Shown here one piece after another: positions 2,837-50,344 of a stretch of 64,000 nt of DNA. Made by a program: the position numbers and the translations under genes. The notes beneath the pieces are model-generated. The model saw only the letters and a program-made list of their open reading frames with translations. It searched no databases and had not been told where the DNA came from. This DNA comes from a candidate division CPR2 bacterium GW2011_GWC2_39_35 (lineage in GTDB: Bacteria; Patescibacteriota; CPR2): assembly GCA_000995065.1 (NCBI GenBank), contig LBWX01000001.1, positions 223,563 to 287,562 on the forward strand, in the 5' to 3' direction. Positions within the stretch are counted from its first letter, which is position 1. Each line of letters starts with the position of its first letter.

Positions 2837-3973
2837 CTAGTCCTTATTAGACATTTCTTCTGCAGATTCCTGAAGTGCGATCTTGATTTTGTGCACGTAT
2901 TGAAGCGTCTCCTTATAGGGAGGCACTTTGCCGTATTTAACAACGGCTCCCGGGCCAGCATTATAAGCAGCAAGTGCTAAACTTGAATAGCCGAAAGTTT
3001 CAACTTGCTCTGACAAATAGTTAGCAGCAGCATCAAGCTGGATATCCGGACTGTCTTTATAAGCTGACAAGTCATACTTATTCCCATTCGCGTCTTTCAT
3101 GTTCGCGAGTGTACTCGGCATAACTTGACCAAGACCTAATGCTCCTGATCGCGATCTTGCTTTATAATTCCAACTACTCTCCTTTGACACAAGTTGTTCG
3201 AGTAAAGCAGGGGAGACGCCATACCTAACAGCCTTCCTGTTTACTATCTCAGAATAATACTCGTTGTCCGTCTTTGTCTTTAGCTCCAGCAAATAAGTGT
3301 CAATGTCGTAGGCGTATGCCCAGAGCCGATACCAGGGAAAATTCCTAGCCGGATCTACTTTCCGCCCCTTTGGCCTCGCTGCACGACGATGACTTATCAC
3401 GTTACCTCTTGGAACATCATACTTTTGAGCAATCCACGCAGCACTCTTAATTTGTTCGTCAGTATATGGATCGTATCCGTTACCTAAATTAACAAATTCA
3501 ACACCTATAGTGCTAGTGTTATTAAAGCGCGAATTACTAACGTCACCTGCATGATTTGCTTTGTACCAAGGCGGAACAATGACATAGATCGTCCCATCTT
3601 TGTCGATAAGATAATTGCACGAGATCTTGCTTTCGGTCAGCCACTTTTGGGAGGATTTAAGATCGCCGGCAGTATGATGTAACATCATTCTGTCTGGAAC
3701 CTTCCGCCTCATCGCATTAAGATTGCCTGTCTGCCTGATTTCAACATTAAGTTTCTGCTGAAACCTCTTATTTACAGCCATCACAATCCGTGGCTCACGC
3801 ACCTTCTCTTCTGGACCTTGTGCAATATCAGTTATTCCAACCCGATCACCAACTTCTTTAAGCACATCTATTACTACTGAAGCGTCGATCATTGCACTAA
3901 ACCAGATACAAAGCACCAGGGCTACCAAAAGACACTTAAGCAGCTTTTCAGGTATATTCCTAATGTTTTTCAC
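2837..3973 (-). CDS. secreted bifunctional peptidoglycan hydrolase: N-terminal N-acetylmuramoyl-L-alanine amidase (amidase_2/PGRP-like) + C-terminal lytic transglycosylase (SLT) domain
   Basis: Signal/anchor LLKCLLVALVLCIWF; amidase_2-like HHTAG...CNYLIDKDGTIY...HAG...GVEFVN; SLT motifs ESSWNYKARSRSGALGLGQVMPST and AAYNAGPGAV; locally higher G+C than flanks. Confidence 0.7.
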   Translation of the reverse strand: MKNIRNIPEKLLKCLLVALVLCIWFSAMIDASVVIDVLKEVGDRVGITDIAQGPEEKVREPRIVMAVNKRFQQKLNVEIRQTGNLNAMRRKVPDRMMLHHTAGDLKSSQKWLTESKISCNYLIDKDGTIYVIVPPWYKANHAGDVSNSRFNNTSTIGVEFVNLGNGYDPYTDEQIKSAAWIAQKYDVPRGNVISHRRAARPKGRKVDPARNFPWYRLWAYAYDIDTYLLELKTKTDNEYYSEIVNRKAVRYGVSPALLEQLVSKESSWNYKARSRSGALGLGQVMPSTLANMKDANGNKYDLSAYKDSPDIQLDAAANYLSEQVETFGYSSLALAAYNAGPGAVVKYGKVPPYKETLQYVHKIKIALQESAEEMSNKD

Positions 3974-4362
3974 CTCCTCCTAATCACCAAAAAGAACTAT
4001 TTTACTTTTAATGTGCATGCTAGAACTATTTCCAGCAGCCGAAGCGACCTACTCGAGGTGAAGCCAGTAGGCCGTTTCGACGGCTCGAAGATTAAAAACA
4101 AAAAAGACCCGAGCGGGTCAAGTGGTGATACAAAAGAAAATTTGTACAAAAAAATGCGACCGGTTTCACCACTAGCTCCCCGTGACCATAAGGTGACCAA
4201 ATAATAGGTCACGGATCGAAGCTTCCGCTTTATCCTGCGGGATATTTGCATATCCGTAAGGGATAAAATAATTCTAATTTAAAGTTGTTAACACCGCTAT
4301 TTTAACATTTGGTTGTTTATGTGTCAATAGTTTTCCTGAACCATTTCCTGAACCATTCCTGA

Positions 4363-4506
4363 ACCACCCTCACTTTTTTGTCATCCCCGTGAATACTTAG
4401 GATCCAGAAGGCTTGGGGACATAGTGAGCTTCCCGGATTCCCGCCTGCTCGGGAATGACAACTAGCGTTACTTTTCTTGTTTTTTAAAAAGTGAGGGTGG
4501 TTCAGG
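4363..4506. repeat. G+C-rich ~100-nt palindromic element (copy A, minus orientation relative to copy B) nested inside a perfect 18-bp inverted repeat gaaccaccctcactttttt / aaaaagtgagggtggttc followed by T-run
   Basis: Reverse complement of ~4382-4480 aligns at roughly 80% with ~10015-10112 (gtcattcccg..gcgggaatcc..ggaagc..ccaagccttctggatcc..cacggggatgac); termini gtcat...atgac inverted. Confidence 0.7.
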
Positions 4507-4655
4507 GTTTTTTCTCGGTAATTCCTCACAACCCCCTCGTCACTCAGAGAAGTTCAGACGACGAAGCAATCTCTATTTGATTTGCAAACAGAATACGGCT
4601 ATAGACGTGAAGAGAGGGCCTTCGGTTGAAGACCCTCCTGGGGTAAGCGTTGCTG

Positions 4656-4853
4656 TTATTTCTTGTATGTTAGGTCCCATGCGTCTCGCATGGAAATAAA
4701 TCCGCCCTCACTTTCTACTTCCTTTTGAATTTTTATCGCCTCCCTATGACGATCCATTTCCTCCTTATCTCTTGCAGCCAGAGCGGCAAGAGAAAGATGT
4801 ATTACTACTGCAATCGCAGCAATAATTACGACGGCGTTCATCAGCTTTTTCAT
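4656..4853 (-). CDS. small single-pass membrane protein (65 aa from ATG with AGGGGGAA SD)
   Basis: MKKLMNAVVIIAAIAVVIHLSLAALAA then charged tail; SD agggggaa 6 nt upstream of ATG at 4853; ORF-track version starts further upstream. Confidence 0.45.
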   Translation of the reverse strand: MKKLMNAVVIIAAIAVVIHLSLAALAARDKEEMDRHREAIKIQKEVESEGGFISMRDAWDLTYKK

Positions 4854-5035: not shown

Positions 5036-6106
5036 ATGGATGACGAAGACCTAAAATATTGGCTTGCAATAGACAAAACTCAAATTATAGGGCCCAAGAG
5101 GATGCCAATATTGTTGGAATATTTTAAAGAAGTTAAAAACATATGGGAAGCACCGGAACAAGAACTCTTAAGGGTCGGTCTCAACAGGACTACTGCCAAA
5201 CTTTTTCTCGAAAAAAAGAGAACAATCTGTCCAGATAAACTGCTACCCATCTTAGAAAAATTAAAAGTAAAACCCATCACCCTTAATAATCCGGATTATC
5301 CCATTTTACTAAAACATATCCCTGATCCACCGATAGTTATCTATATTAGAGGGAATACTAATCTGAATGTAGAAGGAGTCGGCATTGTCGGCACCAGGAA
5401 AGCGACTAATTATGGCCATTCTATTGCCTTCGAATTTGCCAGAGAGATATCTAAATATGGCATATCTATAAACTCCGGCCTTGCCATCGGTATCGATTCC
5501 TACTCCCATAAAGGCGCCTTAGATTCTAAAGGCAGAACCATTGCCGTTCTAGGGTCGAGCATTGACCGCATCTACCCGGCGGTAAATTTCCAAATCGCTC
5601 AAAAAATTCTAGGACATGAGGGCTCCATTATTTCCGAATATCCGCCTGGCACTCCCGGAGGAAAATACCAGTTCGTGGGTAGAAATCGGATTATTGCCGG
5701 ACTCTCTAAGGGCGTTCTTGTAGTGGAAGCACCCGAAAAATCGGGCGCCTTAATTACCGCCGACTTCGCCCTGGAACAGGGAAGAGAAGTCTACGCTATT
5801 CCGGGAGATATTTTAAACAAAAATTCCATTGGACCCAATAATTTAATAAAAAATGGCGCCAAGATAGTTACCAAAGCTCTAGATATCTTGGAAGACTTTG
5901 ATATCAAAGAGAATGAAAAAGCATCGATAAACCTTTCCGAGCTAGAAGAGAGGATTTTAGAATGCTTAAACGAGCCCAAAGGCATTAACGAGATCGTCAA
6001 AGAATTGAGCTTGAATGTTACGGATATTGGATCTCAAATGACCCTTATGGAGCTTGACGGCTTAGTTACAAACCGAGGCGGCTCGATGTATTCCAAAAAT
6101 ATCTAG
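5036..6106 (+). CDS. dprA: DNA processing protein DprA (Smf)
   Basis: GIVGTRKATNYG, AIGIDSYSHKGAL, IAVLGSSIDRIYP, KSGALITA...EQGREVYAIPG Rossmann-fold DprA motifs; C-terminal wHTH-like extension. Confidence 0.9.
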   Translation: MDDEDLKYWLAIDKTQIIGPKRMPILLEYFKEVKNIWEAPEQELLRVGLNRTTAKLFLEKKRTICPDKLLPILEKLKVKPITLNNPDYPILLKHIPDPPIVIYIRGNTNLNVEGVGIVGTRKATNYGHSIAFEFAREISKYGISINSGLAIGIDSYSHKGALDSKGRTIAVLGSSIDRIYPAVNFQIAQKILGHEGSIISEYPPGTPGGKYQFVGRNRIIAGLSKGVLVVEAPEKSGALITADFALEQGREVYAIPGDILNKNSIGPNNLIKNGAKIVTKALDILEDFDIKENEKASINLSELEERILECLNEPKGINEIVKELSLNVTDIGSQMTLMELDGLVTNRGGSMYSKNI

Positions 6107-6152: not shown

Positions 6153-6893
6153 ATGAAAATCAAATTTCTAGGAACAAGCTCTGCCTTGCCGCTACCAAGA
6201 ATTAACTGTCAAGGAAGACAAATTTGCCTGTCAAAAGACCCCAAAGATCAGCGGCTTAGATCGAGCCTTCTTATTGATAATCGAATACTCGTAGATTGCG
6301 GACCGGATGTTTACACGCAGCTTCTCCGCGCCGGCATGCCCGTTATCGAAGCAATTATTTTTACTCATAGACACGGCGACCATATAAATGGATTCAAGCT
6401 GAATTTTAAAGAACCGCAAACCGCAGAAGTAAAACTTTACGGACCAAAGGAAGTCTTTAAGCGAATTAGAAACGAATATAAGTTTAAGAATTCGGCCCAT
6501 ATATATAAGAATGGGGAAGCGTTGGATTTTGACGCCTTTACCGTAAATCCGCTAAAGATTGATCACGAGGGACTGGATAATTACGGTCTCCTAATATCAA
6601 CGAACAAAAGACTTTTTTACGCGCCGGACATCGAAGCAATCCCAAAAATAACGCTAGAAGTAATAAAAGAGGCCGATATCTTGGTTGTCGACGGTTCTAT
6701 ACTAAATGGGCCGCATTACGGACATATTGGAATCGACCGTCTCTTAGAGATAATAAAACCCTTAAATAAGGAAACTTACTTTACTCATATTGGCATAGGA
6801 AATCCACCTCACAAAGAGCTGGTTAAGTACGTAAAGGAGAAAGGTGGAGACAATTTTAACGTTGCCTTTGATGGCATGGAGCTAGAAATATGA
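6153..6893 (+). CDS. MBL-fold metallo-hydrolase (PhnP/RNase Z-like family)
   Basis: FTHRHGDH (HxHxDH) motif, later D and H ligands (HIGIG); 246 aa. Confidence 0.7.
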   Translation: MKIKFLGTSSALPLPRINCQGRQICLSKDPKDQRLRSSLLIDNRILVDCGPDVYTQLLRAGMPVIEAIIFTHRHGDHINGFKLNFKEPQTAEVKLYGPKEVFKRIRNEYKFKNSAHIYKNGEALDFDAFTVNPLKIDHEGLDNYGLLISTNKRLFYAPDIEAIPKITLEVIKEADILVVDGSILNGPHYGHIGIDRLLEIIKPLNKETYFTHIGIGNPPHKELVKYVKEKGGDNFNVAFDGMELEI

Positions 6894-45093: not shown

Positions 45094-45543
45094 CTATTCC
45101 CAGCGATATTCGGAGAAGAAAATTTTATTTTTGTAATTTTCTAAAGCAACTCTTACATTTTCTACTGTATTTTCCGGTAGGTCATCAAGGGGAAACCAAG
45201 ATAGATCACTGCATTTTTGCGGCTCCATTATTTTCGGTTCTCCTTGCCAATTGTCAGCTGTTAGATAAAAATCAACAAATTCATAGCTACTTATATGATG
45301 AACAACATGTACCACTTTTAAATCTTCGGATTTAATTTCTAATCCCGCTTCTTCTTTGGCTTCTCTTGCCATTGCCTCTGCAACAGTTTCATTACCGTCA
45401 AGATGTCCGGCAACTAAGCTATATTCACCATCTTTCCAGCCGGCATTAGCCCTTCTAAGAAGCAAGATTTGATTACCCTTGAGCAGTATTAGATAAACTG
45501 CTCCGCGTAATGTAAATTTCTGTTTTGACATTACTATCTCCAT
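45094..45543 (-). CDS. NUDIX hydrolase
   Basis: Nudix box GHLDGNETVAEAMAREAKEEAGLEI. Confidence 0.85.
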   Translation of the reverse strand: MEIVMSKQKFTLRGAVYLILLKGNQILLLRRANAGWKDGEYSLVAGHLDGNETVAEAMAREAKEEAGLEIKSEDLKVVHVVHHISSYEFVDFYLTADNWQGEPKIMEPQKCSDLSWFPLDDLPENTVENVRVALENYKNKIFFSEYRWE

Positions 45544-47275: not shown

Positions 47276-47842
47276 ATTTTCTCCTAATTATAATTGCATC
47301 AGCTGTGCCTTATTATAGCATAAATCTCATTTTATGATTTTTAAATCAAATAAATCTAGACCAAAAAAACGTACGATCATGAGCTTTTGCACTGGATATT
47401 AACCCCTAATACCTTTAAACTACAAAGAAATTATCTATAATGTTAACAAATACCCCACGATCGTGGAGTATTTTTAATGAAAAAACAGAAGTACTTTTCT
47501 TAAGCTGTCACTTGGAACCTTACCCTCACACCCCCAAAAGAATAAAAATGCCTCAAAGGGCATTTCAATTTTTCTTGGCTGCCTAAATGCACTTTCTTTC
47601 GAACTCTTTTTGGAGTGGGTTGATAGGATAAGGAAGGTGTATAAACAGCTGAATTAAGTATCACTAAATAAAAAGCGCCCAGACAAGACCATTGATTGAG
47701 ATATGATTCCTCAATATAGTCCCATCTGGGCACACTTGCATGCTGAGTATATTCTTGCTATTTCGCCTCGATTAAATCTCAAGACTATTTCTATAAAGTC
47801 GCTCCCAGAAAATCCAACAGATATGTCATCAAGGTAATACCG

Positions 47843-49067: not shown

Positions 49068-49320
49068 TTATTACCCCTCCCATAACAAGAATATTTTTTA
49101 TAATGACAAGCTGCCTTCAAACGCTTAAAGGCAATTTGCCATTATAAAGCAGGGGCATTTTTTAAGGAACTGTTGACTGCTAATCATACCATAATTTTGT
49201 TGATTTGGCGAGGTTTTTGCGGAATTTTGAGTAACTGACTAAAGCCAAGAGTTCGAATCCCGTTTACCTTAACAACCATTTGAGGGTGAATTGCCTGTTT
49301 TTAAAGAAATTAATCGAACT

Positions 49321-49582
49321 CAAAAAAAGACCCATTTCAAGGTCTTTCTATATTTCAGCCGGGGTGCGTCCCTTTTAGCTGGGGAGGAGGCCGGCCTTCG
49401 GCCGATCACCCGTAGGGCGAGATTCTCACCGCAGCTCACTGCTTTTAGCTATATTATCCGAATGTTTATCAAATTCTAAGCGCTTTAGGTATCACCATTG
49501 TCATCTTGAACGTTTATCTCGGGGGTCTCACCCTCCATCCCCAAAGAAAATAAATACACCCTCTCGGGTGTCTTCATTTTCT
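49321..49582 (-). ncRNA. candidate structured G+C-rich RNA co-oriented with and immediately 3' of tRNA-Gln, ending at an intrinsic terminator
   Basis: Minus-strand read-out contains long-range pairing GGGGATGGAGG...CCTCCTCCCC, hairpins acaccc-gagag-ggtgt and ggcc-gaa-ggcc, and terminator agacc-ttgaaatg-ggtct-TTTTTTT (plus 49321-49347); G+C well above flanking DNA; no protein ORF. Confidence 0.35.
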
Positions 49583-49657
49583 TGGCTGGGGTGGTAGGAC
49601 TCGAACCTACGAATGGCGGCTCCAAAAACCGCTGCCTTACCACTTGGCTACACCCCA
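49583..49657 (-). tRNA. tRNA-Gln (anticodon UUG)
   Basis: minus-strand sequence TGGGGTG-TA-GCC..GGC-A-GCGGT-TTTTGGA-GCCGC-CATTC-GTAGG-TTCGAGT-CCTAC-CACCCCA-G-CCA; 7-bp acceptor with U1:A72, G73 discriminator (Gln identity), anticodon loop uU-UUG-GA, encoded CCA. Confidence 0.9.
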
Positions 49658-50344
49658 TTAAATATTTTTACTAATTCCTTTTATCCAGCCAGCAATCTGT
49701 CGATTAAAATTTGTACTCTTACTGACACACACTCTTATCAATCCATAATAATTTTTATTTATGTGCCTATTTGTCTTTGGCCGATGCCTTTTAAAAATCG
49801 TTTTTTCGAATTCTTCGATCGGAATATTAAGTTCGTTAGACCAATATTCTAAAGCTTTGACTTCATCAGCTGACTCATGAATATGTAATCTGCATTTTAT
49901 ATCTTTTGGTGAAATATCGCAAATTTTGGTTAGCCACATTAGAAACACTTTTAACATATCCGGATCGGAATTCCCAAAGAAAACTCTCTCGGAAACATTG
50001 TATTCTTTTTGTTTTGCGCCTTCAGCCCAATAAAGACAAACACCTATAAGCCAAAGCTCTCTTTTGCTTAAATTTCCAATTTCTTTCTGGGATCTCTCCA
50101 TGATTTCATTTGTTAACTTTATTCTTTTGTGTTTTATAGTTTCAATCGCTTTAAGATGCGCTTGCTTTCTTTTTTGGGTTAGTTTTTGTTTTTGTTTGTC
50201 AGCTAATCCAATATCTCTCAACCATAACGATAAGGACGATTTAGCAACCGGAACTTCAGCCAAGATTTCATTATAAGAATATCCTTGCTGTCTTAATTTT
50301 ATCGCTTGTAATCTTTCCTCGGTTTTAGAAATCATTTGAACCAC
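49658..50344 (-). CDS. HTH-domain protein of unknown function (possible degenerate LAGLIDADG-like/homing-endonuclease-like C-terminal part, weak)
   Basis: N-terminal HTH GYSYNEILAEVPVAKSSLSLWLRD (sigma-r4/transposase-OrfA-like); downstream LIGVCLYWAEGAK segment; stop codon abuts the 5' end of tRNA-Gln. Confidence 0.4.
   Translation of the reverse strand: MVQMISKTEERLQAIKLRQQGYSYNEILAEVPVAKSSLSLWLRDIGLADKQKQKLTQKRKQAHLKAIETIKHKRIKLTNEIMERSQKEIGNLSKRELWLIGVCLYWAEGAKQKEYNVSERVFFGNSDPDMLKVFLMWLTKICDISPKDIKCRLHIHESADEVKALEYWSNELNIPIEEFEKTIFKRHRPKTNRHINKNYYGLIRVCVSKSTNFNRQIAGWIKGISKNI

Follow-up and report, generated by a model that had tools for sequence, protein, structure and literature searches.

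Transfer-messenger RNA (tmRNA) is derived from tRNA, a large insertion having replaced the anticodon arm. Both it and 4.5S RNA, the RNA of the signal recognition particle (SRP), are matured via the enzymes of tRNA maturation. Bacteria of the candidate phyla radiation (CPR) have tiny genomes with few known regulatory RNAs, and we know of no CPR bacterium that is yet easily grown. RNAs encoded beside tRNA genes include 3′ETS-leuZ of E. coli, a tRNA 3′ external-transcribed-spacer (3′ETS) RNA that acts as a sponge for small RNAs (PMC8383071, PMC7815308), and GOLLD and ROOL, which are 500–800 nt long, widespread, often found in prophages and supported by extensive covariation (PMC5737381). Here, a 168-nt element located behind the tRNA-Gln(UUG) gene of the CPR2 bacterium GW2011_GWC2_39_35, within a 64-kb stretch of its genome (the window; 38.1% G+C), is compared with these systems. 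The element is more than chance, and we see an even chance, judging from the sequence, that it is a gene for a small non-coding RNA restricted to CPR2, placed on the strand of the tRNA and possibly derived from tRNA-Gln. Resting on two sequences, it is a lead and, for now, not a discovery.

Coordinates are given in window numbering, and the element is read on the minus strand. The proteins of the window are identical in the CPR2 assemblies GW2011_GWC1_41_48, GWC2_39_35 and GWD1_39_7. The gene order comprises a 225-residue open reading frame (ORF225), tRNA-Gln(UUG), a hairpin, the element and a kinase gene. The features of the locus, with identities to a homologue of the element on contig L018 of a second CPR2 lineage, are as follows.

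49583–49657, minus strand: tRNA-Gln(UUG), 75 nt, ending ...CCCCA-G-CCA (ARAGORN; Rfam tRNA, 66 bits; sequence).
49546–49582, minus strand: hairpin GACACCC-GAGA-GGGUGU followed by AUUUAUUUUCUUU, terminator-like on both strands (terminator scan).
49376–49543, minus strand: conserved element, 168 nt, from U-GGGG... to ...CCCC-A-G-CUA (alignments, nhmmer).
49505–49543, minus strand: 5′ module of the element, UGGGGAUGGAGGGUGAGACCCCCGAGAUAAACGUUCAAG; 80% identity to L018, 56% G+C.
49445–49504, minus strand: variable A+U-rich middle; 32% G+C, 53% identity, length kept.
49376–49444, minus strand: 3′ module; 94% identity to L018 (65/69), 65% G+C.
49357–49380, minus strand: lineage-specific hairpin AGCUAAAAGGGACGCACCCCGGCU, seen in the fold; the alignment shows no L018 counterpart.
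49322–49347, minus strand: intrinsic terminator AAAGACC-UUGAAAU-GGGUCU + U7, with a 7-bp stem and a 7-nt loop.

The homologue was obtained with a search pattern for the 3′ part of the element that required exact letters in presumed loops but only the purine or pyrimidine class in stems, and one contig, L018, matched. L018 is another contig of the 39_10-type genome, of which L001 is GW2011_GWC2_39_10; a further contig, L021, reached independently via the NUDIX protein, is LBVV01000007 from the same assembly as L001. Both lineages are present in the samples ERZ27254739 and JGI 3300025309 of the source groundwater (Rifle aquifer, GW2011 series). The homologue occupies positions 3619–3787 and is 169 nt long, compared with 168 nt in the window, with a single indel. 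The gene order in L018 is glutamyl-tRNA synthetase (GluRS), an open reading frame (ORF), a GIY-YIG gene, tRNA-Gln(CUG), hairpin, element and a NUDIX gene, the product of which is 85% identical to the NUDIX protein encoded at window 45097–45531. Both genomes have tRNA-Gln, hairpin and element as one unit, with flanking genes that differ on both sides, and the anticodon of the adjoining tRNA is UUG in the window and CUG in L018. An initial annotation of this DNA had linked a structured RNA to tRNA-Gln on the same strand and had made conservation of the downstream region in relatives its own test; both the linkage and the conservation are borne out by L018.

The two copies agree at 80% of positions in the first 40 nt and at 94% in the last 69 nt, with 53% agreement in the 60 nt between them. 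Four-fold degenerate sites of orthologous neighbouring genes have an identity of 0.67 (NUDIX) and 0.42 (kinase), and coding DNA overall is 75–84% identical between the lineages. The middle, being about as diverged as the four-fold sites, is therefore approximately neutral, and strong constraint acts on the ends. Even with the neutral identity set at 0.67, the probability of at least 65 identical positions out of 69 in the 3′ module is 6e-8. Ascertainment is not the explanation of this conservation, because the part of the 3′ module outside the search pattern is identical at 27 of 31 nt.

The conservation boundary lies exactly at ...CCCYAGCYA. The extent of ~235 nt proposed in the initial annotation is thereby cut to a conserved unit of 168 nt, which stops at 49376, approximately 30 nt short of the terminator stem (49347). 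These annotated or predicted features have no counterpart in L018: the AGCUAAAAGGGACGCACCCCGGCU hairpin, the 49322–49347 terminator at this place, the repeat ‘agctaaaag’, which does occur twice in the window (49442–49450 and 49372–49380), and the segment ‘cgcaccccggctgaaat’. This last segment, part of the AGCUAAAAGGGACGCACCCCGGCU hairpin, had been likened to the P4 strand of RNase P RNA. The resemblance is not upheld: the segment falls beyond the conserved element, has no equivalent in the homologue and is accompanied by no match to an RNase P family at E ≤ 10. Judged from the alignment, the repeat, the AGCUAAAAGGGACGCACCCCGGCU hairpin and ‘cgcaccccggctgaaat’ are lineage-specific or chance. 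L018 has a terminator of its own, AGCCA-UAGUUC-UGGCU + CUUUAUUCUU, which overlaps the 3′ end of its element.

In every other assembly of the window organism the element is 100% identical. L001 shares the kinase gene, its promoter and its leader from window 49218 onwards, with dcd and tRNA-Ala upstream and no element. Downstream of the ORF–tRNA-Gln(UUG) pair in L008, L011 and L013, contigs of more distant CPR relatives, there is a plain terminator or other genes and no element, which restricts the element to CPR2. No element was within reach in a third CPR2 lineage (L019, L020) or in NUDIX-anchored relatives at 62–65% identity (L030–L036), and there were no matches in a metagenome scan with the tRNA sequence or in scans of phage, plasmid and viral collections. 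In L011 (Parcubacteria), a large serine recombinase gene at 3229–4731 lies against the 3′ end of tRNA-Gln(UUG) with a slight overlap, probably an element integrated at that tRNA.

ARAGORN, Rfam and the sequence agree on the clean 75-nt tRNA-Gln that had been annotated, which starts with U and has U1:A72, G73 and an encoded CCA. The RNA was originally proposed to be a simple 3′ trailer of this tRNA, closed by one terminator. The terminator described (agacc...ggtct + U7) is indeed present at 49322–49347, although the terminator scan listed its stem, 49326–49347, on the plus strand alone, and the assignment to the minus strand rests on the T7 run in the sequence. It is not the next terminator after the tRNA, and the simple trailer model is not supported, as a terminator-like hairpin with two compensatory pairs separates tRNA and element. 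With such a hairpin directly after it, the tRNA transcript has a stop signal immediately behind it. This hairpin (acaccc-gaga-gggtgt) had been noted, as had ggcc-gaa-ggcc within the 3′ module; both are present. The hairpin after the tRNA exists in three versions: window locus A, behind tRNA-Gln(UUG); L018; and window locus B, the site of a truncated second copy.

47522–47581, minus strand: truncated second copy, ‘window-B’, consisting of CAGCCA (the last 6 nt of a tRNA), the hairpin and ~17 nt from the 5′ end of the element (blastn, alignment).

A U-rich tract follows the hairpin in each version. The stem sequence varies while pairing is held, with 95.8% of cells paired and two compensatory pairs, compared with at most 58% in slid controls. 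In L018 the hairpin DNA also fits a sigma-70-type promoter, TTGAAA-N18-TATTTT, with a predicted start at the GGGG of the element, and by inspection TTGAAA-N18-TATTCT stands at the equivalent place in locus B.

On the minus strand beyond the hairpin, the sequence runs from GGGGAUGGAGGGUG... through ...GGCCUCCUCCCCAGCUA, ~160 nt on, to the AGCUAAAAGGGACGCACCCCGGCU hairpin and the terminator at 49322–49347. The 3′ module contains the hairpins CAG-UGAG-CUG, GGUGAG-AAU-CUCGCC and UCGGCC-GAA-GGCCGG, followed by CCUCCUCCCCAGCUA. The description of the intervening stretch as G+C-rich holds for the region 49321–49545 as a whole (48.9%, in a window of 38.1% overall, and within the top 0.6% of 225-nt windows), with the qualification that the excess is confined to the two ends of the element (56% and 65%), the middle 60 nt having 32%.

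Both copies begin with U-GGGG and end with CCCC/CCCU-A-G-CYA. The ends can be arranged as an acceptor-like stem with a discriminator base and a 3′ end (UGGGGA:UCCCCA, then G, then CCA in L018 or CUA in the window), and the pair probabilities of this terminal helix are 0.8–1.0 in the window and 0.6–0.7 in L018. The L018 element ends with CCUCCUCCCUAGCCA and the L018 tRNA-Gln(CUG) with CCUCCUCCCCAGCCA, a match at 14 of 15 nt; in the window, the 3′ ends of tRNA and element match at 11 of 16 nt. The first 8 nt of the L018 element, UGGGGUGU, are identical to the start of the window tRNA-Gln(UUG). By virtue of these shared start and end sequences, the terminal helix reproduces U1:A72, G2–G5/C68–C71, G73 and, in L018, CCA. 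Such tRNA-Gln-like termini may be processing signals or a trace of descent from a tRNA-Gln gene.

The long-range helix between GGGGATGGAGG and CCTCCTCCCC that had been annotated was recovered in the minimum-free-energy fold, at pair probabilities of 0.8–1.0. Compared with shuffled sequences, the 49321–49545 region folds more stably on either strand (minus, z = −4.4; plus, z = −3.6). A possible cloverleaf order, from 5′ to 3′, consists of the acceptor strand, a GAGGG-loop-CYCYC hairpin, a GAGAU/AUCUC helix enclosing ~100 nt, a connector of 6–7 nt, a GGGUG...CCUCC stem looped by UCGGCC-GAA-GGCCGG, and the 3′ strand of the acceptor. The competing fold is composed of an 11-bp terminal helix and local hairpins, and a rod model was likewise examined, two sequences being too few to choose between it and the cloverleaf. 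Changes between the copies fit several helices (G-C to G-U, A-C to A-U). Predicted helices include G-U pairs, namely in H2 (GGUGAG/CUCGCC), in the U-G closing the GGCC-GAA-GGCC hairpin and in G2-U of the L018 terminal helix, and unrelated terminators stand behind both copies on the tRNA strand. Read from the opposite strand, the G-U pairs would turn into A-C mismatches; together, these observations indicate that any RNA made here runs in the direction of the tRNA.

At gathering thresholds over the whole window, Rfam matched only the tRNA at this locus and, elsewhere, a c-di-GMP-II riboswitch aptamer (4149–4235, minus strand; RF01786, 71 bits, E = 5e-14), which is unusual in a CPR genome. At E ≤ 10, a 700-nt slice and the L018 copy gave chance-level microRNA and snoRNA matches, with no family common to both copies. 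ARAGORN searches for tRNA, for intron-containing tRNA and for tmRNA, with thresholds also lowered, reported nothing on the sense strand of the element.

Individual candidates were rejected as follows. A tRNA, including an intron-containing one, does not fit, as the Rfam tRNA model matches the true tRNAs and not the element, which has no T-loop and carries the hairpin UCGGCC-GAA-GGCCGG in its position. For tmRNA, there is no ARAGORN call in tmRNA mode, the element has G3:C70 and G73, and T-loop and conserved frame are lacking. No RNase P family was matched at E ≤ 10, and the CR-V-like segment at 49357–49375 is absent from the homologue. The 6S model RF00013 gave no match, and the middle is A+U-rich, largely unpaired in predicted folds and unconserved. 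SRP (4.5S) RNA was excluded by the absence of an Rfam SRP match and, on sequence inspection, of the helix-8 motif.

The initial annotation had offered a reduced RNase P, 6S or other known RNA as one explanation. A highly divergent 6S, SRP, RNase P, tmRNA or Y RNA, missed by covariance models, would be in keeping with the frequent divergence of CPR sequences, and a size of ~170 nt with paired ends fits 6S or 4.5S RNA in outline. We nevertheless regard it as very improbable: the weak matches of the two copies share no family; the SRP helix-8 motif, the RNase P P4 strands, G3:U70 and A73 are all missing; the A+U-rich, unpaired middle prevents a rod with a central bubble; and the element is absent beside tRNA-Gln in other CPR genomes, whereas housekeeping RNAs are universal. 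On present sequence grounds, the element is not a reduced RNase P, 6S, SRP or tmRNA. That no known family was matched leaves room for the other explanation offered, a new class.

Contrary to the annotation of the region as free of ORFs, frames of 39, 57 and 62 residues overlap it, those at the 3′ module on both strands; none of them is supported. The frames have no conserved start codon and no conserved Shine-Dalgarno or ribosome-binding site in the two copies. Each of the two substitutions that the 3′ module carries is non-synonymous whichever open frame is used, and no third-position bias is seen in the linker. Six-frame translations of the invariant module, covering all its open frames, had no match among 5.8 billion predicted proteins. 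Small-ORF readings of the element are rejected for their substitution pattern. The other form of this alternative, a cis-regulatory leader (riboswitch or attenuator) of the downstream gene, could appeal to the c-di-GMP-II riboswitch that the window does carry, just as a small protein gene could appeal to the overlapping frames. The downstream genes differ, however (a kinase gene in the window, a NUDIX gene in L018), and a terminator as well as the kinase gene’s own conserved promoter and leader (homologous to L001 from 49218) intervene. Taken together, a leader or small protein gene is extremely unlikely.

Fragments of the element and its surroundings are scattered over nearby intergenic regions of both genomes. 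Window-B is 95% identical to L018 3572–3632, after which similarity ends, and it looks, from this alignment, like a decayed orthologue of the L018 locus; if so, the full copy behind tRNA-Gln(UUG) is a second copy, paralogous or relocated. Window-B sits in a 570-nt intergenic region (47276–47842) with a GTTCGAA motif upstream, a possible remnant of a lost tRNA-Gln(CUG) gene; if it is one, the lineage went from two glutamine tRNA genes to one. In L018, the 3′ module recurs at 6798–6866 (81%), its hairpins damaged, and position 5304 repeats ‘AGCCATAGTTC’. Window 49240–49354, comprising the terminator and the next 80 nt, is 75% identical to a different intergenic region, L018 5474–5588. Within it, on the minus strand, the 11-mer GGGATTCGAAC (49251–49261) is the reverse complement of a tRNA T-arm, which suggests tRNA-gene debris in the opposite orientation. 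The scattered fragments show that the neighbourhood has been reshuffled repeatedly, and they lend some plausibility to a repeat or mobile-element origin.

Two further sets of observations concern the same surroundings. L018 contains paralogous intergenic blocks, 5356–5405/6737–6786 (86%) and 5607–5646/6869–6908 (80%), which flank element fragments; one holds CTTGACTAG...TTTTTTGATTGAAA and the other a TATAAT promoter, and the blocks look like a small intergenic repeat family. The contig ends of L006, L007, L016, L017, L025 and L026, from both lineages, fall inside tRNA-Gln or the element, which suggests assembly ambiguity, for example through repeats or strain variation.

One account of the fragments is a DNA-level repeat, a mobile element resembling a miniature inverted-repeat transposable element, inserted beside tRNA-Gln, the 11-bp terminal inverted repeats of which (GGGGATGGAGG / CCTCCTCCCC) would be kept for a recombinase or transposase. 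The inverted repeats are present, the ends are conserved around a neutral middle, and the fragments, including the T-arm-like one at 49251–49261, are distributed as such an element might leave them; the serine recombinase of L011 also makes tRNA-Gln an integration site in the radiation. We consider this account unlikely, although it deserves to be kept in view. There is a single full copy in the 64 kb of the window and a single one in the 12 kb of L018, and the two share their orientation and their spacing from a tRNA-Gln gene. A target-site duplication is lacking (CTTT versus AGCT), no transposase or integrase gene adjoins the element in either genome, and a conserved end of 69 nt far exceeds a typical terminal repeat.

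A non-functional relic, either a decayed duplicate of tRNA-Gln or an integration scar in which the repeat of the tRNA 3′ end marks a former attachment site, would explain why a direct repeat of that 3′ end closes the element, and why window-B lies beside the apparent last bases of a lost tRNA-Gln(CUG). A relic would be expected to evolve neutrally, whereas the 3′ module is 94% identical, compared with ~50–67% at neutral sites and 75–84% in coding DNA, and the length of the element is conserved. The resemblance to tRNA is also limited to ~15 nt, the remainder of the 3′ module being unrelated to tRNA-Gln and without a T-loop. Decay or scarring is thus quite improbable as an origin.

The case for a small non-coding RNA gene at 49376–49543 is built on conservation beyond neutral expectation and on a length that is kept although about half of the linker has diverged, together with the same position behind tRNA-Gln in two genomes with different neighbours. 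Additional support comes from the pairing kept in the hairpin, the strand evidence, G+C-rich ends in a 38% G+C genome, the tRNA-like ends and the non-coding substitution pattern. Several observations weigh against it. Only two independent sequences of the element are available, all remaining copies being 100% identical to one of them; no helix of the element has compensatory support from these two, none of the changes between them being compensatory, and the 3′ module is near-invariant and hence uninformative on structure. The L018 fold is weak relative to shuffled sequences (z = −0.66), the modules alone give z = −2.0 to +0.5, and the 5′ and 3′ modules are not significantly more complementary to each other than shuffled controls (z = −1.8 and −0.3). 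The cloverleaf-like arrangement is ~10 kcal/mol less stable than the optimum in both sequences. The hairpin after the tRNA resembles a real terminator, and at window locus A its DNA is a poor promoter match, with none reported by the scan. Finally, the partial copies at window 47522–47581, L018 6798–6866 and L018 5304 point to a repeat family.

If the element does encode a small RNA, its transcription, processing and function can, we infer, be outlined as follows. The RNA would be produced by read-through of the leaky terminator hairpin behind tRNA-Gln or, alternatively, from a promoter embedded in the hairpin, such as the one in L018. The tRNA-like terminal helix would let tRNA-maturation enzymes set the ends, with RNase P acting at the 5′ end and 3′ trimming proceeding back to the helix. 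The 3′ module would form the functional core and would probably bind a protein or another RNA; when the single-stranded conserved 5′ segment was used as a query for targets within the window, only the element itself matched.

A more specific version, which we put forward as a long shot, is that the element is a repurposed, roughly tRNA-shaped derivative of tRNA-Gln acting on the Gln-tRNA(Gln) pathway, akin to the origin of tmRNA from tRNA-Ala. It would combine the acceptor helix (U1:A72, G73, CCA) with a D-arm-like hairpin, a very long arm replacing the anticodon arm and a hairpin replacing the loop of the T-arm, and could serve, for example, as a mimic or decoy for enzymes that recognise the acceptor end of tRNA-Gln, among them RNase P, the CCA-adding enzyme, GatCAB and a non-discriminating GluRS. 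Its action on this pathway would then be the reason for its retention beside each tRNA-Gln gene. The GluRS gene of L018 lies 1 kb upstream. A small RNA at this locus, if real, would be among the first lineage-specific non-coding RNAs described in CPR bacteria and possibly the second case, besides tmRNA, in which a tRNA became a different kind of RNA; a repeat or an integration scar would instead make tRNA-Gln a rearrangement hot spot in these genomes.

The gene upstream of the tRNA is the following.

49658–50335, minus strand: ORF225, whose product has a helix-turn-helix at its N terminus together with an uncharacterised alpha/beta domain.

ORF225 has 1456 homologues across CPR genomes. In the window the tRNA starts one base past its stop codon, and in the window and three other lineages examined (L008–L014) the frame abuts or overlaps the first bases of tRNA-Gln(UUG); in those three lineages the pair comes after GtrA and dnaX. 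Its AlphaFold2 model has a predicted local distance difference test score of 83, and it showed no fold match in the PDB and no Pfam or NCBIfam family beyond HTH_23. This is a protein gene tightly coupled to a tRNA gene. On the other side of the element, the sequence upstream of the amino-acid (glutamate-5-) kinase gene (window 49070–49218, minus strand; L001 2850–3000) is conserved in two CPR2 lineages, has a promoter-like TCGCCA-N17-TATGAT and an inverted repeat with 24-nt arms at 49097–49148, and may be a leader or attenuator.

Among known systems, the 3′ETS RNAs resemble the element in position: like them, it is encoded directly downstream of a tRNA on the same strand, with an intrinsic terminator at its end, and perhaps depends on transcription of the tRNA. 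Whereas 3′ETS-leuZ is a short unstructured trailer freed by tRNA processing, the element is 168 nt long with its own tRNA-like terminal helix, is parted from the tRNA by a terminator-like hairpin and has no sequence relationship to 3′ETS-leuZ. The likeness to GOLLD and ROOL is that of an unexplained structured RNA candidate beside tRNA genes, possibly because of co-transcription; the element differs in its size, its occurrence in two CPR2 lineages and its lack of covariation support. As in the precursors of tmRNA and 4.5S (SRP) RNA, which are established RNase P substrates (review PMC12016569), the ends pair as an acceptor-like helix followed by N-CCA. Unlike those RNAs, the element is detected by neither Rfam nor ARAGORN and has no T-loop, G3:U70, A73 (G3:C70 and G73 instead), tag reading frame or SRP helix-8 motif. 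With tRNA-gene attachment sites it shares the direct repeat of the tRNA 3′ end downstream of the tRNA, and a serine recombinase adjoins tRNA-Gln in L011; in contrast to such sites, it has ~200 bp between the repeats, no integrase, and a constraint stronger than that in neighbouring genes.

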